From Parasegetibacter sp. NRK P23 (lineage in GTDB: Bacteria > Bacteroidota > Bacteroidia > Chitinophagales > Chitinophagaceae), in assembly GCF_023721715.1 (NCBI RefSeq), contig NZ_JAMDLG010000001.1, positions 3,857,655 to 3,921,654 on the forward strand: DNA of 64,000 nt, given 5' to 3'. The notes under the pieces were generated by a model that saw nothing but the letters and a program-made list of their open reading frames with translations, made no database searches and was not told the origin of the DNA. Shown here in pieces: positions 3,793 through 62,623 of the stretch. The position numbers and the translations under genes were made by a program. How positions within the stretch are numbered: position 1 is the stretch's first letter; every line of letters begins with the position of its first letter.

Positions 3793-4409
3793 ATAACACC
3801 TACGTATATGAGCACAAATCTAATCATATTTGCCACCTGCTGAATCTTCCAGGAAATAATGGCGTCCGATTCCGGTAACAATTCCCTGTACTTATAGGCG
3901 GAAAGCGTCAGCACACTCACTACGCTGTAAAAGAGAAAACCGCTTACGATCCAGAACCCCGCAAGTTTCTGAAAATGCAGGATATTATCGTCTTTCGCCA
4001 ACCGGATAAAATACCTGAAACAAAAAACGGTACATATCAGGTTCAATACCCCGGCTGCATTGCTGTTGAAGCTGGTGAACAAAGGTTCCCAGAAAATGAG
4101 ATTCAGCACCGTGAAACACAGGAAGAGCGAAAGCACCACGTTGATGTACTTGTACTTTTCCGGTGAAAGGGTGTTGATAAGGTGAAGCACCAGGATGGCT
4201 TCCAACATGGTGAACAAGTGGTAGATATACAGGTTGTGTAGTCCCTGATCAGCCAGCAGGTTACCGTAACCCATCAACAGAAAGGAAACAAGTGAATAGG
4301 CTAAAAGCCATCCTGCTCCCGGCTGCCATTTCCTGATATATACGATCAGCAAAATGGCGGCCAGCAGCGGGAAAGTGGTATCGGAATAGTTTAAAAAAAA
4401 ATTCTCCAT
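3735..4409 (-). CDS. polytopic membrane protein (6-7 TM). It is probably the detached sensor/membrane module of the downstream kinase.
   Basis: Very hydrophobic with multiple TM segments. It overlaps the kinase ORF by 58 nt in a different frame. Confidence 0.6.
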   Translation of the reverse strand: MENFFLNYSDTTFPLLAAILLIVYIRKWQPGAGWLLAYSLVSFLLMGYGNLLADQGLHNLYIYHLFTMLEAILVLHLINTLSPEKYKYINVVLSLFLCFTVLNLIFWEPLFTSFNSNAAGVLNLICTVFCFRYFIRLAKDDNILHFQKLAGFWIVSGFLFYSVVSVLTLSAYKYRELLPESDAIISWKIQQVANMIRFVLIYVGVIWCYRPDSSSGLYLSDRQR

Positions 4410-10310: not shown

Positions 10311-10328
10311 CTTCACGTTTCACAAATG

Positions 10329-10480
10329 CACGGGGTGCTTTCCCGCAGGGAAGGCTGAGATCATACCCGGTACCTGATCTGGATAATACCAGCGGAGGAA
10401 TTGCAAAAATGGTGTTGCACATCATTCGGGCGTAAGCTCCTGTTCCCATGGTTTTCCGGGCAGGAGCTTTTGATTTTTTA
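10329..10480 (+). ncRNA. TPP (THI-box) riboswitch with terminator-type expression platform
   Basis: GGGGUGC ... GCUGAGA ... ACCCGGUACCUGAUCUGGAUAAUACCAGCGGAGGAA matches the THI element. It is followed by a 9-bp stem (aagctcctg/caggagctt) plus a U-tract at 10434..10480. Confidence 0.85.
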
Positions 10481-10498
10481 ATACGCAACACCATTACA

Positions 10499-11209
10499 AT
10501 GAAACTCGACCTGTACACACGCGGCCTGCAGCACTGGCAGGGAAGACCGGAATGGTTCTTCAACCGCGAACACACCGATACGTACGAACAATGGTATGAA
10601 GGGCGCTACAAAAGAGCGGAGATCTGGCAGAAAAAAGTGATCGGGGGCCTTATCTCGAAGGATACGCGCGTTAAAACCCTGCTGGAATTCGGTTGCGGAA
10701 CAACCCGCTTCACCCGCTGGTGGAAGAACATTGGTATCGAAGCGATGGGCGCAGATATTTCACCGCTCATGTTGGGCCAGGGCGTACGCCTTTTTGATGG
10801 TGACCTGGTGCTGGCAGATTCGCACCACATGCCTTTCAAAGACCAGACCTTCGACGCGTTGGCTTTCATCACTACCTTTGAATATTACCGTGATCCCATC
10901 CAGGTGATCCGTGAATCCGCCCGCGTAGCGAAATATGGAATCGTATTCGGGATGATGAACAGGAACTCTCCCAAAGTAGTGCGGCGCCGTATTCAGCAGG
11001 CGTTTGGCAAAAATCCTTTTTATGTAACCGCAACATTCTACACACCGGATATGCTGATGGCAAAGATCCACGAAGCGCTGAAAGGCAGGGATTATAGTAT
11101 TGAATGGACCTGCACCGGTTTGCCAAAATGGTTTCCCGTACAGCAATGGAGTGTTCCGGTAGGCGATTTCTTCGGACTCCATGTGAAATTCAATGATGTT
11201 CAACCTTAG
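10499..11209 (+). CDS. class I SAM-dependent methyltransferase (Methyltransf_11-like)
   Basis: SAM-binding motif LEFGCGTTRF. The track ORF starts at 10448, but its first 17 codons overlap the riboswitch terminator, so the start is moved to MKLDLY at 10499. Confidence 0.7.
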   Translation: MKLDLYTRGLQHWQGRPEWFFNREHTDTYEQWYEGRYKRAEIWQKKVIGGLISKDTRVKTLLEFGCGTTRFTRWWKNIGIEAMGADISPLMLGQGVRLFDGDLVLADSHHMPFKDQTFDALAFITTFEYYRDPIQVIRESARVAKYGIVFGMMNRNSPKVVRRRIQQAFGKNPFYVTATFYTPDMLMAKIHEALKGRDYSIEWTCTGLPKWFPVQQWSVPVGDFFGLHVKFNDVQP

Positions 11210-26037: not shown

Positions 26038-26110
26038 GGTGCGGTAGCTCAGTTGGTAGAGCAAAGGACTGAAAATCCTTGTGTCGCCGGTTCGATTCCG
26101 GCCCACACCA
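26038..26110 (+). tRNA. tRNA-Phe (GAA)
   Basis: Cloverleaf drawn by hand. D-arm GCTCAGTTGGTAGAGC. Anticodon stem-loop AAGGA-CUGAAAA-UCCUU. T-arm GCCGG-TTCGATT-CCGGC. Close to E. coli tRNA-Phe. Confidence 0.85.
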
Positions 26111-32555: not shown

Positions 32556-32865
32556 GTTTTAAAGGTTGTTTTTTCAAAAACCACGATGCCCGCCACCGGC
32601 AAAGGCGGAATGGAATTCGTATACCAGCTGCTCCTGTTGTTCCCTTCGCTTATGTCGCTCCTGCTGAGGAACGACAGCCACGAAAAGAAGTGCGGGTCGA
32701 TCTGCCATCTTCCATCCATTGCTGGCTATTGCCTGGTTGCGGTTCCAAAGCCGCCCCACTCAAGGGAGCCGCTCTTTCAAGCGCCGGAATCTTCCGGCGG
32801 TCATAGGTTCCACAGGCGGGCAGCCTGGTTTTGTTTGCTTGTCATCATTTTTTGAGAAGCGATGG

Positions 32866-33000
32866 ACTTCTTTTTCAACATTTTGAGTGTTGTGTTCTAC
32901 CGCTGAACTATCACGTTTTGAGCGTGAGCAGGATTCGAACCCGCGCTGCATGAACTGTTGCTCTACCAACTGAGCTACCTGCGTTAGGAGGGAAGGAATC
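32866..33000 (-). other. cluster of degenerate, fragmented tRNA-like sequences (tRNA halves): a 5' half with CAA anticodon arm; a D-arm+T-arm chimera; a T-arm+3' acceptor fragment
   Basis: D-loop motifs AGCTCAGTTGGTAGAGC and AGTTCAGCGGTAGAAC. T-loops GGTTCGAATCC and GGTTCGATTCC. Perfect anticodon stem-loop CAACA-CUCAAAA-UGUUG. No full cloverleaf can be assembled. Confidence 0.5.
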
Positions 33001-33682: not shown

Positions 33683-33754
33683 CACGGGATGAAGGATTCG
33701 AACCTTCATGCACGGGTTTGGAATCCGTGTTGTTGCCAATTACATCAACCCCGC
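33683..33754 (-). tRNA. tRNA-Trp (CCA)
   Basis: Acceptor GCGGGGU/AUCCCGU (2 G-U). Anticodon loop UUCCAAA. T-arm GAAGG-TTCGAAT-CCTTC. Discriminator G. Confidence 0.7.
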
Positions 33755-33757
33755 GAA

Positions 33758-33832
33758 TGGTGGATGAAACAGGATTCGAACCTGTAACCACGGCGTTTCA
33801 AACCGCTGCTCTACCATTGGAGCTATTCATCC
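33758..33832 (-). tRNA. tRNA-Phe (GAA), second copy, CCA encoded
   Basis: Acceptor GGAUGAA/UUCAUCC. D-arm GCTCCAATGGTAGAGC. Anticodon stem GCGGU/GCCGU with loop UUGAAAC. T-arm ACAGG-TTCGAAT-CCTGT. Confidence 0.65.
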
Positions 33833-33836
33833 GTTG

Positions 33837-33908
33837 TTGGTCCGGCAGGATTTGAACCTGCAGCCTTGAACGTATCAGGTTCCTGCGCTACCATTGCGCC
33901 ACGGACCA
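33837..33908 (-). tRNA. tRNA-Ile (GAU)
   Basis: Acceptor UGGUCCG/CGGACCA. D-stem GCGC/GCGC. Anticodon loop CUGAUAC. T-arm GCAGG-TTCAAAT-CCTGC. Confidence 0.6.
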
Positions 33909-33987
33909 TTTGCCGGCTCAGAAAGATTGGAACTTTCACTGTTGTGTTCGTAGCACAGTGTTCTTTCCGGTTAAACTATAAGCCGGG

Positions 33988-34060
33988 GGTTGTCTCCGGG
34001 CCTCGAACCCTGTTCTCTTCTTTCACAGGGAGGCGCTTTACCCGTTAAGCTAAAGACAAC
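33988..34060 (-). tRNA. tRNA of uncertain identity. Anticodon loop CUGUGAA (GUG, His-like) with discriminator C73, but a weak anticodon stem.
   Basis: Perfect 7-bp acceptor GUUGUCU/AGACAAC. D-stem GCTT/AAGC. T-loop TTCGAGG. Anticodon stem CCUCC/AGAAG has two C-A mismatches. No encoded G-1. Confidence 0.4.
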
Positions 34061-34066
34061 AAACTG

Positions 34067-34138
34067 TTGTTGAGGCTGGATTCGAACCAGCATCTTCAGC
34101 GCCAAAAGCTGACGTGCTCGCCGTTGCACTACTCAACA
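34067..34138 (-). tRNA. tRNA-Gln (UUG)
   Basis: Acceptor UGUUGAG/CUCAACA (U1-A72 as in bacterial tRNA-Gln). Anticodon stem-loop UCAGC-UUUUGGC-GCUGA. T-arm GCTGG-TTCGAAT-CCAGC. Confidence 0.8.
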
Positions 34139-41783: not shown

Positions 41784-44700
41784 ATGAACGGGTTGAACAT
41801 TGTTATAAGAGGGCATAAGCAGACGCCCGCAGTTGCGACCAATGCAGGCGATGTATTGGAGCTGGAAGCGTCTTACACGATTACCGGGGTTTCCCGAGGC
41901 GATGCCTCTGCCCATAAGATCACACTGAACAGGGAGAAATTACTTGAATTTATTTTTGAAGATGAAACTACATGGATGTGCAGCGATGCATCCATCAACG
42001 AATTATTCCCCGAACTGGATGCGCCTGGCATGGCTTCGGCGGTACGTGGCGGCGATGGCGCATTCGAAATACCCGCGGCATTAAAGGCGTCGGGAGCGGA
42101 ACGTGGATGGGTGACCAACGTGGCCATAAAGCTCATCAATGTATTCGCGAAAAAGAAGATAGGCATCACCGTTGAAAAAGCCGCCAGGAATTATGAGTTG
42201 AAGAACCTGGGCAATGTGGTGGGACTTTTTAAAGTAGATACTGGCTTTCATTTGCACGAATTCCGTGCGCCGGAGCTGGGGAAACCGGTGCTTTTGCTGA
42301 TCCATGGAACAGCGTCTTCCGTATGGGGTTGCTTTGGCGGAATGAAAAATACAGAACTCTGGAAATACCTTTGCCAAACCTATGGTAACAATATTTACGC
42401 TTTCCAGCATGAAACACTGAGCAAAAGTCCGTTAGACAATATCCGCGAACTTATCGGGCTATTGCCTTCCAACCTCCACCTGCATATCATTACACATTCA
42501 CGTGGTGGATTGCTGGGAGATGTACTCTCCAGATTCACAGATTCTGATGCGGGGAAAAATGGCTTTACAGATGAGGAACTGGCTTTGCTGGAGAAAGAGA
42601 AAAGACATGCAGACCTCCGGAACATTGAGGCGATCACGAAGTTGATGGCGGGGAAACAGTTGCGTGTGGAGCGTTTCATCCGTGTTGCCTGTCCTGCCGC
42701 CGGAACGATACTGGCTTCCAAACGACTGGATATTTATTTCAATGTGATCGCCAACCTTACCGGTTTATTAACCGGTTCACTGGCCAACCCGCTGTTCACG
42801 GCTTTCCGCGAACTGATCGCCTCGGTGATCGATACCAAAGATGACAGCGATGTATTACCGGGCATAGAAGCCATGAACCCGGAATCGCCGTTTTTGAAAG
42901 TGCTGAACAATCCATCCACGTCAGCGCCATTGAACAATCAATTGGTGGTGGTGGCCGGTAACTGTGGACTGAACTTCAGTATGAAGGCGTTGAAGATACT
43001 TGCCGTTCGCCTTTTTTTCCTGGAAGCCAACGACCTTGTGGTGAACAGCGATTCCATGTACCTGGGGGCCAAAAGAAAAATGCCAGTGCAGTATTTTTTT
43101 GATGAGGCCGATGATGTGGACCACTTCAGCTATTTCAGGAATAAAAAGACGGGCCAGGCTATGATGCGCGCCTTCCAGACCCAGCCCGATAAGCCTGTTC
43201 CGGGGTACGCGCTCTTCAACAGCCCCAGCTCGGAAGAAGCCCTCCGCAACGCGTTATTTAACCCGGAAGGTGGTGAACTTTTCCCCGATGAAATCACGGG
43301 AAAAAGACCTATCGCTGTGCTGTTACCCGGCATCATGGGCTCCAATATTGGTCCTAAGGGCGACCTGCTCTGGATCAATTACTGGAAGTTCATTAAGGGT
43401 GGGTTAAAAGACCTGAACAACCTGGAGGAATACACCGCAACTTCCGTGGTGAAAACCTCGTATAAAAAACTGAAAGATGAACTCTCCGCGAAATACGATG
43501 TGGAGACTTTTCATTTCGACTGGCGTCGTCCATTGACCGAAGTGGCCGCTATCTTCAATGAAAGAATAAAACAACTGATGGCCTTCGGCCAGCCGATCAG
43601 GTTGATTGGCCACTCTATGGGCGGTGTGGTGATCCGTGATTTTATGGTGAACCACCGCGAAACCTGGCAGCAGCTCAATAATTCCACGGGCTTCCGGCTT
43701 ATCTTCCTCGGGTCCCCACTGGGCGGCTCTTTCAGAATTCCCTACGTGTTGTTCGGGAAAGATTCCATCATCAAGAAACTCGCGATGATCGATATGCGCC
43801 ACAGCAAAAAGGAGTTGTTGCGCGTGTTTTCAGGCATGCAGGGATTGTTAAGTTTACTTCCCCTCGATAAAAACAATGCGGAAAATGATTTTGGAAACGG
43901 TGAAACCTGGCGACAGATGGCCCAGGCTGTAGGCGATTCTTCCTGGCCGCTTCCGCCTGCCAATACAATTAAAGCATTTGCAGATTACCGTGATGGCATA
44001 ACGGATCTTTCAGCGGATGACTTTAAGAATGCCGTGTACATAGCAGGGAAAGATAAGTCCACACCTTGCGGTTATCGCATCGAAAATGGGCAGCTCGTGT
44101 TCCTAAGTACCGCCGAAGGCGACCAGAGCGTAACCTGGGAAACAGGCATTCCTGCTTTAATGTCAGCCGCCAATAATGTGTATTACGTAAACGTTTCGCA
44201 TGGCGCGCTGGCCAACGAACCTTCCATGTTCAAAGGCATTGGTGAAATACTTGAAACAGGTACCACCAACCTTTTGAGTAAGAAACGGCCGGTGGTACGC
44301 GGGGAAGAAAAAGTATTCCGTACACCGGAAGTACACGACTTCGATACTTCCATGATAGGGTTGGAAAAAACACTGCTGGGATTGGGTGGAGAAACCACCG
44401 GAATTGAGCGGGGTGAAACACCGATCCGGGTATGGGTAAGTAACGGGGACCTTTCTTACGCGGCAAATCCGGTACTCGCAGGTCACTTTGAAGATGATGG
44501 CGTACTGTATGCCGAATCTTATATAGATGCGCTGCTGGATGGCGCGTTGCGAAAAAGACACCAGCTTGGATTGTACCCGGGAAAAATCGGTACCAGTGAA
44601 GTGTTCCTGCCCGATGCGGGTCGGTTTACCGGAGCGATTATAACCGGTTTAGGTAAACCCGGTACATTAACGGCGCACCAGCTCACGCTTACCGTAGAGC

Positions 44701-47243
44701 AGGGGGTCACCAATTATTTACTGGGCTTTAACAGCGGGCTGGAACGCAGGCAAAAAAAGAACGACGGGTCGGGTATTTCCTCACTTATTATCGGGTGTGG
44801 ATATGGCGGACTAAGCGTGGAGAATTCCATCCGCGCCATTTTACAGGGCGTTCAGAATGCCAATGTGAAAATGGCGAAATTGTATGGAACCCATTGCCGG
44901 ATGGTGGAAGATGTAGAATTTGTGGAGAAGGACCACAGTCGCGCGCTCGGATGTTTCTATTCACTCGCAAGAATAGAGCAGGAGCGCAACCGCTGGCTCA
45001 ACATTACTTTACCCGAGAAAAAAATAAGGCTCCTGCTGGGAAGGACCAAAAGAATACCACACGACGCCAGCGAGGAATGGTGGAACCGCATCACCGTAAG
45101 GCAGTATGGTCTGGAGACGTTGGAAAGAAAAGCCATCAGCAGCCTGCATTTCAGCGCCTCCACCGGAGGGGCAAGAGAGGAAGTGCGGGTACTGCATTGC
45201 AGCATGGGAATTATTGATGAACTGGTGAACAATATTTCCACCAGCAATGAATGGACGCCACAACGAGCCAAGACCATCTTCGAATTGCTGATACCCAACG
45301 ATTTTAAAGAACAACTCAAAAGGCAATGCCATATCTCCTGGATACTGGACAAGGAAACGGCCGCTTATCCCTGGGAGTTGCTGCAGGACACGATCCAGAA
45401 TGCAAAACCCCTGTGCATCAGCGCGGGCATGATCCGTCAACTGGCCACGGAGCAATACCGGACCATTATCAATCCAGCGGTGAAGAACAATGTGCTGATT
45501 ATTGCCGAACCGCAGCTCAACGGCGCGGCCCCCGCCCTTCCGGCAGCAAAAGAAGAGGGGCTGCAAGTGGCGGATATATTGAAGGAGAACGGGTACGAAA
45601 CAAAACTCGTGGCAGAAGCAGCGGCCCCGGAAATAATCCAGGCTTTATACGAAGACGATTACCGTATTATTCACCTGGCGGGACACGGTTTTTTCAACGA
45701 ACAGGAACCGGAAAATTCCGGGATGATGATCGGTCATAATGTCTATCTCTCCACCCGTGAAATCGCCCAGATGAGTGTGGTTCCGGAACTGGTGGTGGTG
45801 AACTGCTGCTTCCTGGGCAAAACTTCCGGAGCCGCCGAAGCGCTGTACAACAAGAGATACCGGCTGGCCGCCAACATTGGCACACAACTGATTGAAAACG
45901 GAGTGAAAGCCGTAGTGGCCGCAGGGTGGGCTGTGAACGACGCGGCAGCGCAGGAGTTTACCAATGTGTTTTACAAACACCTTTTCGATGGGTATAACTT
46001 CGGGGAAGCTGTGCTGGAAGCTCGAAAGGCTGTTTTCACGCTGTTCCCGGGAACGAACACCTGGGGGGCCTATCAATGCTATGGTGATCCGTTCTTTAAA
46101 TTGAAAGCGAATGGTCCTTCCAGGAAAGAAGCGCGTCCGTTGTCGTATGTTATTTCGGAAGAAGCGGAATACGACCTGTTCAACCTGCTGAATGAACTGG
46201 AGATGGGGAACCGGCCCGTAGCTGAATACAACCGCAAACTGGTCGCCATCATGGATGCCGTTGACCGTGCGGGCATCCGGAATGCGGAGATCACCGAAAA
46301 AGAAGCATGGGTCCTCACTGAACTGGCGAGTTTTGATGAGGCCATCGTGAAGTACGAGCAGTTGCTCCGGATGGAAAAAGCGCTTTTCACTTTCCTCAGT
46401 ATGGAAAGGTATTGCGATATCAGGGGCAGAAAACTGTTGCGCGATCTTCAGCGTAAACTCATTACGGCCGCACAGGCGGAAGAAGGCATCCTCCGCGTGA
46501 TTGCCGACCTGGGTGTGCTGATCAACGCCGGCGGTACGGCAGAGCGGTTCGGGCTACTCGCGCGCGCCTACAAAAGAAAAGCGCTGATGACCAACCAGTC
46601 CGCCGCCCGGACAAAGCTGCTGGAAAAAGCGGCCGCGCTTTGTTACCAGGCATACCAGGTGGCGGGAAAAGGGGAGAATATGTACGCGCTAACGGCATGG
46701 CTGGAAATGGAAAGCGTGCTGGTATTGGTCTACGGAAGAAAATGGGGACAGTCCTGCCGCTCGGAAAACCTGACCTACACACTCCCGCAAGCCGAGGATG
46801 TTCTAAAATTACTCGAGCAGTCCGCCACTACTGTTTACAGCGACGACGATGAATTTGATTACAACGATATGGTTTCCGCCACACACATCGAACTCTGCAG
46901 AATGCTGGTGGGCAAAGCGTCCGGCGGGGAAGAGGACTGGAGCAATATTATGCGTACGCTGCAATCTATATGGGAAAAGGCCGGCTCCCCGGGTAAAAAG
47001 ATCGCGGAAACTGAAAGATGGTGCTTCCTGGCACATGCGCTTTCAGGCCAGAGAAAAGATATTGCTTACGAATTCATCCCCGAAGGAAACGCAGGTATGG
47101 AAACGATCAGCGTGTATGTTGAAATGGTCAGGGAAGTGTTGAAGCTCCGTAAAAAGAACGGCGGCATCTCCGTGAAAAAAGCACCGGTTAAGAAGGCTGC
47201 CCCCAAGAAAAGCCCGGCGAAAAAACGGGTTACGAAAAAGTAA
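41784..47243 (+). CDS. 1819-aa multidomain protein: unknown N-domain + two tandem lipase/esterase-like alpha/beta-hydrolase modules + caspase-like region + CHAT protease domain + TPR-like helical array + Lys/Ala/Pro-rich tail
   Basis: GxSxG elbows ITHSRGG (~aa 239) and IGHSMGG (~aa 611), each preceded by an oxyanion-type LLIHGT / LLPGIMGS segment. CHAT dyad HLAGHG (~aa 1298) and VVVNCCFLG (~aa 1342). C-terminal helical repeats. Tail KKAPVKKAAPKKSPAKKRVTKK. Single uninterrupted frame. Confidence 0.85.
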   Translation: MNGLNIVIRGHKQTPAVATNAGDVLELEASYTITGVSRGDASAHKITLNREKLLEFIFEDETTWMCSDASINELFPELDAPGMASAVRGGDGAFEIPAALKASGAERGWVTNVAIKLINVFAKKKIGITVEKAARNYELKNLGNVVGLFKVDTGFHLHEFRAPELGKPVLLLIHGTASSVWGCFGGMKNTELWKYLCQTYGNNIYAFQHETLSKSPLDNIRELIGLLPSNLHLHIITHSRGGLLGDVLSRFTDSDAGKNGFTDEELALLEKEKRHADLRNIEAITKLMAGKQLRVERFIRVACPAAGTILASKRLDIYFNVIANLTGLLTGSLANPLFTAFRELIASVIDTKDDSDVLPGIEAMNPESPFLKVLNNPSTSAPLNNQLVVVAGNCGLNFSMKALKILAVRLFFLEANDLVVNSDSMYLGAKRKMPVQYFFDEADDVDHFSYFRNKKTGQAMMRAFQTQPDKPVPGYALFNSPSSEEALRNALFNPEGGELFPDEITGKRPIAVLLPGIMGSNIGPKGDLLWINYWKFIKGGLKDLNNLEEYTATSVVKTSYKKLKDELSAKYDVETFHFDWRRPLTEVAAIFNERIKQLMAFGQPIRLIGHSMGGVVIRDFMVNHRETWQQLNNSTGFRLIFLGSPLGGSFRIPYVLFGKDSIIKKLAMIDMRHSKKELLRVFSGMQGLLSLLPLDKNNAENDFGNGETWRQMAQAVGDSSWPLPPANTIKAFADYRDGITDLSADDFKNAVYIAGKDKSTPCGYRIENGQLVFLSTAEGDQSVTWETGIPALMSAANNVYYVNVSHGALANEPSMFKGIGEILETGTTNLLSKKRPVVRGEEKVFRTPEVHDFDTSMIGLEKTLLGLGGETTGIERGETPIRVWVSNGDLSYAANPVLAGHFEDDGVLYAESYIDALLDGALRKRHQLGLYPGKIGTSEVFLPDAGRFTGAIITGLGKPGTLTAHQLTLTVEQGVTNYLLGFNSGLERRQKKNDGSGISSLIIGCGYGGLSVENSIRAILQGVQNANVKMAKLYGTHCRMVEDVEFVEKDHSRALGCFYSLARIEQERNRWLNITLPEKKIRLLLGRTKRIPHDASEEWWNRITVRQYGLETLERKAISSLHFSASTGGAREEVRVLHCSMGIIDELVNNISTSNEWTPQRAKTIFELLIPNDFKEQLKRQCHISWILDKETAAYPWELLQDTIQNAKPLCISAGMIRQLATEQYRTIINPAVKNNVLIIAEPQLNGAAPALPAAKEEGLQVADILKENGYETKLVAEAAAPEIIQALYEDDYRIIHLAGHGFFNEQEPENSGMMIGHNVYLSTREIAQMSVVPELVVVNCCFLGKTSGAAEALYNKRYRLAANIGTQLIENGVKAVVAAGWAVNDAAAQEFTNVFYKHLFDGYNFGEAVLEARKAVFTLFPGTNTWGAYQCYGDPFFKLKANGPSRKEARPLSYVISEEAEYDLFNLLNELEMGNRPVAEYNRKLVAIMDAVDRAGIRNAEITEKEAWVLTELASFDEAIVKYEQLLRMEKALFTFLSMERYCDIRGRKLLRDLQRKLITAAQAEEGILRVIADLGVLINAGGTAERFGLLARAYKRKALMTNQSAARTKLLEKAAALCYQAYQVAGKGENMYALTAWLEMESVLVLVYGRKWGQSCRSENLTYTLPQAEDVLKLLEQSATTVYSDDDEFDYNDMVSATHIELCRMLVGKASGGEEDWSNIMRTLQSIWEKAGSPGKKIAETERWCFLAHALSGQRKDIAYEFIPEGNAGMETISVYVEMVREVLKLRKKNGGISVKKAPVKKAAPKKSPAKKRVTKK

Positions 47244-47250
47244 AATGAAA

Positions 47251-47298
47251 CGGGCGTATCAAAGAACGATACGCCCGCGTTTATTTCATTCATATTTT
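47251..47298 (+). terminator. strong rho-independent terminator of the giant gene
   Basis: Perfect 10-bp stem cgggcgtatc/gatacgcccg with a 7-nt loop, followed by a T-rich tract. Confidence 0.8.
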
Positions 47299-47334: not shown

Positions 47335-47580
47335 TAAGCAAGAAATTATACCAAGCGCACACGTTGCGCCGCCGTGTTGCGAAGCATGAAGCAATTGCGA
47401 GAAATAAGAATACATCCGCGGCTTTCTAATAAAAGAAACGCCCGCCAACCCGCTAATGCCTTGCGTCCTTGCTCCTGCGAGGAACGAAGCAGTGCGCCTG
47501 CGCCGTGCACAGCACAAAGCAGTTGCGTGAAACCTTCCCCAACAAAACCATTGCTTTCCCCTGCATTGCGAGGAACAACA
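47335..47580. repeat. intergenic GC-rich repeat element (TTGCG-rich family, copy 1)
   Basis: Shares the CCTTGCGTCCTTGCTCCT(T)GCG, AGTGCGC and GCAATTGCGAGAA motifs with 62385..62600 and 50793..50880. Confidence 0.6.
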
Positions 47581-47582
47581 TG

Positions 47583-48104
47583 TTACAACGAATCCTTCTT
47601 CGCCCCCAGGTTCGCATATTTATTCACCGCATTACAATCCACCTCTTTCAAAGGAAACCCTGTGAACTGAAGCTGCGAACGGTCCGAAAAAACCATTCTC
47701 CCGTTTTTTTCCTCCACCGGCCCATAGCCTTCCACCATCGAATCTCCCTGTTTCAAAAAGCTGACTTCCCGGATAGAAACTTTTCCTTCCGACATAAAGG
47801 TATATTCCCCGAACAAAGTATCACCGGAAGCCTGCAATACCACCATACCCACATTTTTATCTTTCTCAAAAAGATTGTAAGTCAGGTTGCCTTTTATGGA
47901 GTCCGCGCTCACAATCATCGACATGCTGATGGTGTCCTTGCCATTTATGCCGGCATAACAAAGCGCCACATTGCTTTTCGGTACGAAAGCGGCGCCGTTC
48001 TTTCCACCTTCCACCCCATCGGGACTGCTTGGTTTAGGATCTGCATTGTTACACGAGAAAAGAAAGAGGGCTGCCGCGAAAGCCGGGATCTGAAAAAGTT
48101 TCAT
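47583..48104 (-). CDS. hypothetical lipoprotein
   Basis: Start trimmed to MKLFQIPAFAAALFLFSC (lipobox). Confidence 0.55.
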   Translation of the reverse strand: MKLFQIPAFAAALFLFSCNNADPKPSSPDGVEGGKNGAAFVPKSNVALCYAGINGKDTISMSMIVSADSIKGNLTYNLFEKDKNVGMVVLQASGDTLFGEYTFMSEGKVSIREVSFLKQGDSMVEGYGPVEEKNGRMVFSDRSQLQFTGFPLKEVDCNAVNKYANLGAKKDSL

Positions 48105-48444
48105 GGTAGTTTTTTTTAATGAACACACGCATGTGCCCATTCATAATGATAAAATTTAATAGGAATAAAGATAATCGAATTCGTGTGCAGAATGGATGTT
48201 AACGAGATGAAAGGAAAATTTTGAATCCAGAATACTAAAAGAAAATAACGGAAGGGCTTCCGGGCAAAATACTGATTCCGTTAACGGAAAACAACGTCGG
48301 TGGCACCGGTTCCGCGGATTTCACGCCCAAGGGCCTTTTCTTCCAAAAGATTAACACGGTGAACATCAGCAGAAAAACACGGTACCCGGTGGCACCGCTA
48401 TACCGGTGGCACCGGGGTACACAATTCCTTCGTAAATTGCACCC

Positions 48445-50790: not shown

Positions 50791-50792
50791 AA

Positions 50793-50880
50793 ACGTTGCG
50801 CCGTGGCGTCGTTGCGAGAAACTATATTGTCTTCCTGAAAGAAATCTCTCGCAACGACGCCACGGCGCAACGCATAAAAT
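50793..50880. repeat. long perfect palindrome (about 27-bp arms) of the TTGCG-rich repeat family
   Basis: gttgcgccgtggcgtcgttgcgagaaa ... tctctcgcaacgacgccacggcgcaac. Directly after the uvrD stop. Confidence 0.65.
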
Positions 50881-50882
50881 AT

Positions 50883-62384: not shown

Positions 62385-62600
62385 GTGGTCACGCAATTGC
62401 TTTGTTCTCGCAATTGCTTTGTGCTGCGCACTGCGCAACGCAAAGGAGCAAGGACGCAAGGGGTTGCTGAGCTTGGGAAAGCTTGCGTTTTTGCGATGCG
62501 TTTTTGTAATTACAAATCCCTTTTTCTGTTACCTTATATCAAGAGCTTTATCAACATAAACGAACTTTGCGTCCTTGCTCCTTTGCGTCTTGGCGTGAAA
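62385..62600. repeat. MITE/REP-like intergenic repeat (TTGCG-rich family, copy with internal 22-bp inverted repeats)
   Basis: gcaaaggagcaaggacgcaagg at ~62437 and its reverse complement ccttgcgtccttgctcctttgcg at ~62560. Tandem gcaattgc(tttgt) units. Confidence 0.6.
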
Positions 62601-62623
62601 AAATAAACTAAAATCATCTTCTT

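Follow-up and report, generated by a model that had tools for sequence, protein, structure and literature searches.

The window, the whole stretch of 64,000 nucleotides that was analysed here, has a GC content of approximately 48% and encodes a protein that is 100% identical (rounded BLASTP identity) to a protein of Parasegetibacter sp. NRK P23; Parasegetibacter belongs to the family Chitinophagaceae of the phylum Bacteroidota. Region A (47335-47580), the intergenic segment from which this work started, sits in a 339-nt spacer with two convergent genes on either side. The upstream neighbour, referred to here as the giant gene (41784-47243, plus strand), encodes a 1819-aa protein carrying DUF7379, an LCAT-like hydrolase domain, and CHAT and TPR-S domains. 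The LCAT-like domain is an alpha/beta hydrolase, CHAT is protease-like and TPR-S is a sensor, an architecture that may recall that of defence or signalling proteins. Convergent with the giant gene is a 185-aa ORF (47583-48140, minus strand) that has no Pfam match.

Directly 3' of the stop codon of the giant gene lies a canonical bidirectional intrinsic terminator hairpin (47250-47278), which stands outside the repeat family described below. The repeats of region A start approximately 80 nt past this terminator, and would accordingly fall within the 3' UTR of the 185-aa gene on the minus strand. When the window is aligned to the near-identical strain L071 the terminator hairpin is flipped, with matching stems and a reverse-complemented loop (AAAGAAC versus GTTCTTT), a difference that reads as a small hairpin-mediated inversion.

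Several other non-coding features were recorded along the window. The near-palindrome CGGTGGCACCG occurs three times at 48298-48414, in the 325-nt spacer upstream of a UvrD-like helicase gene; this three-copy count was reached in 0 of 100 shuffles, and the triplet may represent an operator or another small repeat. A TPP riboswitch (10321-10418, plus strand; 60.8 bits, above the Rfam gathering threshold) precedes an ORF at 10448-11209, and tRNA genes are present as a cluster of seven (33683-34138, minus strand) and as isolated genes at 26038-26110 (plus strand) and 32853-32913 (minus strand).

Results

Three spacers of the window share sequence modules

The original prediction, made from the sequence of region A, was that this segment shares motifs with two other intergenic regions and represents a species-specific, REP/MITE-like family located between convergent or terminated genes. 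The sharing of motifs was confirmed. Repeats are found in the spacers of region A, of region B (50791-50882) and of region C (62385-62623). The 21-mer CCTTGCGTCCTTGCTCCTGCG (47459-47479) is present again at 62441-62461 on the minus strand with two mismatches and at 62565-62585 on the plus strand with three, while the 20-mer AGCACAAAGCAGTTGCGTGA (47511-47530) reappears on the minus strand at both 62389-62408 and 62406-62425; neither found any match in 100 shuffles. Regions A (47361) and B (50793) have ACGTTGCGCCG in common, and TTGCGWGRAA occurs four times in the window, three times in region A and once in region B. GCAATTGCGAGAA alone is a weaker signal (seven matches at up to two mismatches versus 2.5 expected), and AGTGCGC by itself is not significant in the window.

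The density of TTGCG/CGCAA along the window has its maxima exactly at the three spacers, and inspection of all remaining spacers of 50 nt or more revealed no further copies of the family in the window. Four other matches to TTGCGAGAA (8383, 20365, 27392 and 31302) were set aside as chance occurrences, with no module around them. As to gene context, regions A and B do lie between convergent genes as had been proposed, but region C is flanked by two genes on the same strand.

Organization of regions A, B and C

The three modules of region A all lie on the plus strand, and each has a TTGCGWGRAA end. Module 1 (47360..47404; CACGTTGCGCCGCCGTGTTGCGAAGCATGAAGCAATTGCGAGAAA) begins with a stretch that matches the left arm of hairpin B and includes the 26-nt sub-unit TTGCGAAGCATGAAGCAATTGCGAGA; 26 nt of region A (47377-47402) are found without any mismatch at a non-orthologous position of a related strain (L072:15179-15204). 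Module 2 (47459..47533; CCTTGCGTCCTTGCTCCT...CAGTGCGC...AGCACAAAGCAGTTGCGTGAAAC) shares homology with the block of region C on the minus strand, with which it forms an inverted repeat of 33 nt that is 88% complementary. Module 3 (47548..47579; CCATTGCTTTCCCCTGCATTGCGAGGAACAAC) is short and degenerate, and its end lies 3 nt from the stop codon of the 185-aa ORF on the minus strand. Within region A, no inverted partner was found for any of these modules.

Region B, located between the convergent genes for the UvrD-like helicase and a CMD-family protein, consists of a hairpin (50794..50872) whose 26-bp arms (CGTTGCGCCGTGGCGTCGTTGCGAGA) pair perfectly; the module tails are directed into its 27-nt loop. 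On the minus strand the stem is followed by TTTTTATT, with its T-run facing the minus-strand gene, and hairpin B may consequently act as a terminator for the CMD-family gene; its 27-nt loop exceeds the range of the terminator scanner used. A near-copy of this hairpin, with a related loop, is present in a sister strain at a non-orthologous locus (L073:15145-15240), approximately 4 kb past the right end of the window and between two unrelated convergent genes. Between B and this copy one pair is changed on both sides, from G-C to A-U, so that the stem stays perfect. An A-run precedes both hairpins, giving a T-run after the hairpin on the minus strand; the layout of an intrinsic terminator (a GC-rich hairpin with a U-run immediately after it on the transcribed strand) is seen for these two, and not for regions A and C.

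Region C is found between same-strand genes for a GFO/IDH/MocA oxidoreductase and a sugar-phosphate isomerase (TIM-barrel). Its left block (62389..62461, minus strand; CCTTGCGTCCTTGCTCCTTTGCGTTGCGCAGTGCGCAGCACAAAGCAATTGCGAGAACAAAGCAATTGCGTGAC in the minus-strand reading), which is homologous to module 2 of region A, holds the left arm of an inverted repeat (62438-62459) as well as a 41-nt stretch that is missing in sister strains. The right module (62565..62604, plus strand; CTTTGCGTCCTTGCTCCTTTGCGTCTTGGCGTGAAAAAAT) stops 19 nt short of the TIM-barrel gene's ATG, and its arm (62567-62588) pairs perfectly over 22 bp with the left one across a spacer of 107 nt. The module tails are directed outward. 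The 107-nt spacer is single-copy in the window and diverges between strains faster than the arms do.

RNA folding gave a divided answer. Regions B (dG -55.8 kcal/mol, z -11.6) and C (dG -82.8 kcal/mol, z -5.4) fold strongly, and region A folds only marginally better than its shuffles (z -2.1). Region A also has no partner arm, and is most likely inert filler.

The repeats differ between near-identical strains

We compared the window with contigs of close relatives whose flanking proteins are 99-100% identical to its own. All three spacers are polymorphic among strains despite their near-identical flanking genes, and the differences are either indels of the size of a unit (13, 15 or 41 nt) or replacements of whole hairpins by other variants. 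In region A, strain L071 lacks a 13-nt unit of module 1 and a 15-nt unit of module 2 (GCGAGGAACGAAGCA). In region C, L073, L074 and L075 keep the inverted repeat and lack the 41-nt block of the window, with 15 nt extra in L075, and L072 has another hairpin of this class in its place (CCCTTTGCGCCTCTGCGCTTTTGCGAGAA...CACAAAGGCGCAGAGGCGCAAAG). At the site of the L073 copy of hairpin B, L072 has another variant, whose left arm holds a 26-nt exact match to region A.

The site of region B itself is occupied by a different variant, TCTCGCAATTGCTTCACGCAAAGACGCAAAGG, in L076 and L077. These are independent Logan short-read contigs, and both break off within the repeat, 47 nt past the CMD-family gene, as contigs are expected to do at a repeat or palindrome. 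The repeats are thus assembly breakpoints for short reads.

The edges of the indels carry the microhomologies GAA, TTGCGA or CGCAA, which suggests slippage or unequal exchange as their simplest, and a sufficient, cause. Hairpin arms stay perfectly complementary even where they differ from those of other copies, pointing to either correction of one arm by the other or selection for pairing. Within the species, polymorphic sites show swaps of one variant for another and no clean insertion relative to an empty site was seen; transposition is therefore only a candidate process. When the window is pooled with the adjoining stretch of strains L072 and L073, the estimate for the lineage is approximately 4 sites in ~74 kb.

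Outside the species, the genes that flank region C are separated by 18 nt in Flavihumibacter, which corresponds to an empty site. In Sediminibacterium, the orthologous site (L123:2911-3000) holds an unrelated hairpin of CTACTNA-type units (GGGAGTAGTGAGT...ACTCACTACTGACTACTCCC). We note that different Chitinophagaceae lineages seem to have their own low-complexity hairpin families at the same gene junction.

The module form extends beyond the species

Each module strings together 7-9-nt sub-repeats of C-N-T-T-G-C-G type, is poor in A and, in the Parasegetibacter genome, ends with TTGCGWGA(A). Modules are found singly, in tandem (region A) or, as in regions B and C, in inverted pairs that build long hairpins.

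The description of the family as species-specific proved wrong, and its motifs are not confined to the window: relatives, other phyla and metagenome contigs all carry modules. A scan with the 18-mer CYTTGCGTCCTTGCTCCT, using one genome per species, yielded 70 loci, approximately 30 of which belong to other Chitinophagaceae (several MAGs, Ferruginibacter, Niabella and Terrimonas ferruginea DSM 30193). The Chitinophagaceae loci share the extension CTTTGCGTCCTTGCTCCTTTGCGAGCTTTGCGTGAAACAAAAAA and often lie in arrays of related modules, such as CTTCGTGCCTTTGTGTCTTCGTG...TTTCAAAAAA. In most of the remaining matches the module is not extended, and some of these encode hydrophobic stretches resembling signal peptides; eight to nine matches do extend the pattern (TTGCGNCTTTGCGTTAA), often as inverted pairs, and come from Cyanobacteria, Chloroflexota, Acidobacteriota and a Deltaproteobacteria MAG. 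A scan of metagenomes with the B arm CGTTGCGCCGTRGCGTCGTTGCG recovered 44 contigs, whose flanks have visibly different base compositions. The match is followed by TGAG in 20 of 45 cases; an inverted partner lies 6-115 nt upstream in 26 of the 45, with the TGAG tails outward, and downstream in four. Viral contigs gave no match to either pattern, and a phage origin was rejected on these grounds.

The form common to all these sequences can be written as (C[GT]TNG[CT]G plus 0-2 nt) x3, followed by TGAR. In the ~0.9 Mb of loci analysed there are 140 strict triple-unit modules, whereas a shuffle gave 0; TGAG or TGAA comes directly after 79 of these modules. As this form allows approximately 32 variants per octamer, exact 18-23-mers could recur across phyla without recent transfer. 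Among the papers searched, by sequence strings and by topic, none was found to describe these modules.

Some of the loci display arrangements of their own. Three species of Ferruginibacter (L008:3021, L012:1084 and L033:2582) have one module at an orthologous position just upstream of a gene ATG; the flanking ORFs, when clustered, suggest that this is the nuo operon, and the copy is unusually stable. Several long contigs of a high-GC organism (L090, L094, L095, L097 and L098, from metagenomes Ga0228535 and Ga0228536) contain a composite repeat of approximately 300 nt, in which a CGTTGCGCCGTGGCGTCGTTGCGTGAG module and its inverted partner bound a conserved interior, and which looks more MITE-like than the Parasegetibacter copies. 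A 4.3-kb marine-sediment contig (L104) carries 13 strict modules in three clusters around ORFs (1-320, 1945-2110 and 4104-4228), with paired arms that have the same octamer form and are not complementary to one another. In a Sphingobacteriales MAG (L020:2300-2450) and in Terrimonas ferruginea (L064:1050-1390), arrays of TTGACGA/TTCACGA heptamers adjoin the module; these blocks also hold a CTTTGCGTGAA...TTCACGCAAAG hairpin, and the whole L064 block is tandemly duplicated, 191 nt apart.

Position and orientation of modules relative to genes

Over the ~0.9 Mb of loci, and with crude ORF calls, 41 module clusters lie in tandem spacers, 16 in convergent ones and 4 in divergent ones, against a background of 274, 84 and 82 spacers, respectively; a further 13 clusters fall inside ORFs called in the same crude manner. 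In tandem spacers, the orientation of the modules relative to gene direction is unbiased (27 versus 31). Modules gather in spacers with a gene 3' end on at least one side, which is the REP/BIME pattern of location. Together with the lack of orientation bias, this argues against a promoter or 5'-UTR role. A Bacteroidetes promoter (-33 TTTG / -7 TAnnTTTG) had been considered within the module, where the spacing fits; it was rejected because the 'TA' positions vary between copies, and it is also opposed by the lack of orientation bias towards downstream genes.

Relation to REPs, MITEs and other described elements

The label REP/MITE-like was appropriate in part: this is a dispersed intergenic family with REP/BIME-like behaviour, but it consists of neither REPs nor MITEs in the strict sense. 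REPs are imperfect palindromes, 20-40 nt long, that have a stem of 6-13 bp, a small loop and a conserved GT[AG]G or CGTC tetranucleotide at the stem foot (PMC3733652); those associated with RAYTs in Bacteroidetes are palindromes 20-35 nt long whose foot is GCTAG, GCTGG or GTAG (PMC6006769). Single modules are A-poor, cannot self-pair and form no stem-loops, hairpins arising only from pairs of modules; their ends are TTGCGWGA or TGAR, and the GT[AG]G/CGTC tag of REPs is absent. The REP tables of both studies (PMC6006769 and PMC3733652) do not include these modules. Some traits are REPIN-like, in that regions B and C hold inverted doublets and a near-copy of B exists elsewhere, but region A comprises three direct modules and the halves are not REPs.

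The MITE part of the label failed at the target sites. No target-site duplication flanks hairpin B, its L073 copy or region C, the flanks being AAA...CAT for both B and its copy and GCA...CTT for region C. There is also no conserved interior in region C, whose 107-nt spacer is not repeated in the window. An all-against-all BLASTP comparison of ORFs from approximately 115 loci revealed no transposase shared near the modules, and only housekeeping clusters, such as nuo, were recovered. No HuH...Y or Y1-like ORF was found in any frame of the window and of the loci collected, in two checks of which one covered ~0.61 Mb and the other all loci gathered by that point; this is weak evidence given that RAYTs are single-copy.

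Integron attC sites were likewise considered and rejected. Hairpin B reads 5'-GTTGCGC...GCGCAAC-3', with the boxes in reverse order and with mismatches to the consensus 5'-RYYYAAC...GTTRRRY-3', and region C has CGCAAAG; the neighbours are ordinary genes in mixed orientation (UvrD-like helicase, CMD-family, oxidoreductases), whereas attC sites belong at the 3' ends of promoterless cassettes arranged in an array. At gathering thresholds, a search of the whole window against Rfam gave no match in regions A, B or C. At permissive E-values, region B gave only generic long-hairpin matches to microRNA precursors (31-44 bits, versus cut-offs of 54-140), and nothing relevant was obtained for regions A or C.

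Discussion

We favour, with a probability of about 0.55, the reading that region A is one solo, degraded locus of a dispersed, non-coding, modular repeat family. Turnover of the family would proceed in two steps. The first would be the local gain and loss of 13-41-nt units, by slippage or unequal exchange among short direct repeats, for which the shape of the indels offers good support. In the second, whole hairpin elements would be copied or swapped into other intergenic sites without target-site duplication; a candidate machinery is an enzyme that recognises hairpins in single-strand DNA, comparable to the RAYTs of REPINs, and recombination and gene conversion among copies could serve instead. 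We infer both steps, including the arrival of whole elements at new sites, from the comparison of strains. In other lineages paired arms often do not match each other (L104), and hairpin formation may therefore not be the selected property.

The effect of the repeats on the host is probably small. Where transcribed, the hairpins would lie in 3' UTRs or between operon genes, and by analogy with REP/BIME in E. coli they could stop or stabilise transcripts. They may also alter transcript ends or operon polarity, for instance for the oxidoreductase and sugar-phosphate isomerase pair at region C.

Other explanations were weighed against the favoured one. It is scarcely credible that the resemblance is a chance effect of low-complexity sequence. 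AGTGCGC and GCAATTGCGAGAA are indeed individually non-significant; nevertheless, the 20-21-mers recur at up to three mismatches and were matched in none of the 100 shuffles, a 26-nt exact match and a copy of the whole 80-nt hairpin lie at non-orthologous loci, and the 140 strict modules face none in a shuffle. We consider it unlikely that the modules are binding-site arrays for a host DNA- or RNA-binding protein (nucleoid-associated, insulator or global factor), which would recognise three octamers with an invariant GCG and a TGAR tail, a form kept as serving the host. Such a protein would accord with the conservation of form rather than exact sequence over genera and phyla, with the TGAG/TGAA tail of 79 of the 140 modules, with arms that are often non-complementary, so that each module may act alone, and with the module at an orthologous site of the nuo-bearing loci in three Ferruginibacter species. 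However, the presence, number and orientation of modules per site vary freely among near-identical strains, there is no orientation bias relative to genes, and modules are rare between divergent genes, the usual place of regulators; no candidate protein is known, and the 8-bp period does not fit the helical repeat expected for cooperative binding to one face of DNA. That the repeats are functional RNA elements (intrinsic terminators, stabilisers of 3' ends or a small RNA) and are kept for such a role appears very unlikely. It is true that regions B and C fold far better than shuffles, that a T-run facing the minus-strand gene follows the hairpin on the minus strand for B and its L073 copy, and that one pair between these two is compensatory. 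On the other hand, region A folds marginally, in region C and wherever the tails point outward the A-run and T-run are placed the wrong way round for termination, the giant gene has a terminator of its own, there is no strand bias relative to transcription, and in the three regions all Rfam families stay below their curated thresholds. Arms are also often non-complementary in other lineages (L104).

Mobile elements of known type would account for part of the same observations. Canonical REP/REPIN elements, mobilised by a RAYT (TnpA-REP, a HuH Y1 transposase) encoded elsewhere in the genome, would explain inverted doublets that form hairpins, the lack of target-site duplications, and a distribution that is dispersed, polymorphic and located after genes, and RAYT subclasses 2.4 and 2.6 are common in Bacteroidetes (PMC6006769). 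We regard this as quite improbable, in that the units are not self-complementary and have no GT[AG]G or CGTC tag, the tabulated Bacteroidetes REPs (PMC6006769) are unlike these modules, and a HuH/Y1 ORF was not found in the sequence examined. Classical MITEs, cut down from an insertion sequence with a DDE transposase and with the modules as terminal inverted repeats, are highly unlikely. Their layout is approached by region C, with its 22-bp perfect inverted repeats 107 nt apart (~150 nt in total), by the 26 of 45 metagenome modules with an inverted partner 6-115 nt upstream and outward TGAG tails, and by the ~300-nt composite repeat bounded by modules in one high-GC organism. Yet there are no direct repeats beside hairpin B, its L073 copy or region C, the interior of region C is unrepeated and diverges faster than its arms, region B is arranged oppositely with its tails inward, region A and many other loci consist of solo or tandem direct modules, and no family of transposase-like ORFs is shared beside the modules of the ~115 loci.

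The repeats are a convenient marker of fast-evolving spacers and, as they differ among strains with near-identical flanking genes, could serve in strain typing. Interspersed repeats are well studied in Proteobacteria and hardly in Bacteroidota. It is an intriguing possibility, unproven and held here to be rather unlikely, that the form of three C[GT]TNG[CT]GY octamers plus TGAR, usually in inverted pairs, marks an undescribed, widespread class of interspersed elements that spans phyla and is made or recognised by a conserved machinery. This machinery may differ from that of both RAYT/REP elements and DDE-type MITEs. Conservation of the form, and not of the exact sequence, would explain the 18-23-mers found across phyla without recent gene transfer. 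If true, such a class, defined by an octamer form instead of a palindrome with a GTAG tag, would, as far as pattern scans can indicate, suggest that repeats of this sort can arise and persist in a second manner.

Comparison with known repeat families

BOX elements of Streptococcus pneumoniae have modules of 45-59 nt and are known only from one genus. Like them, the repeats described here are modular and intergenic, have a variable number of internal units between conserved ends, and could adopt stable secondary structure, but there is no homology in sequence or architecture. Another comparison is offered by the small dispersed repeats of heterocystous cyanobacteria, reportedly described by Elhai and co-workers in 2008 as units of approximately 13-27 nt inside other repeats and hairpin arms. 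Both families have very short units and are intergenic and polymorphic; the sequences and the clade are different, and the indels observed here occur at microhomologies, for which slippage is enough without active mobility.

REPINs (Bertels and Rainey 2011, PMC3116915) are hairpin-forming doublets of REPs that RAYTs mobilise. Regions B and C resemble them in being inverted doublets that form long hairpins without target-site duplication, with arms that evolve in concert, and hairpin B has a copy at a new locus in a sister strain. They differ in that their halves are not REP hairpins and their tails may be directed inward or outward; the sequence examined yielded no RAYT, and region A is not a doublet.

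The likeness to BIMEs concerns both composition and behaviour. In each case short units form mosaics, alternating or in tandem, in spacers that follow genes and rarely in those between divergent genes, the composition of a site varies by strain, and inverted pairs are able to form hairpins in transcripts. BIMEs are built from the REP sequences of Enterobacteria, which are palindromic stem-loop units of 20-40 nt with a GTAG tag, whereas the modules here are A-poor runs of 7-9-nt sub-repeats with a TTGCGWGA or TGAR tail and no known link to a RAYT. The family is a real one of REP/BIME-like dispersed repeats, neither species-specific nor MITE.
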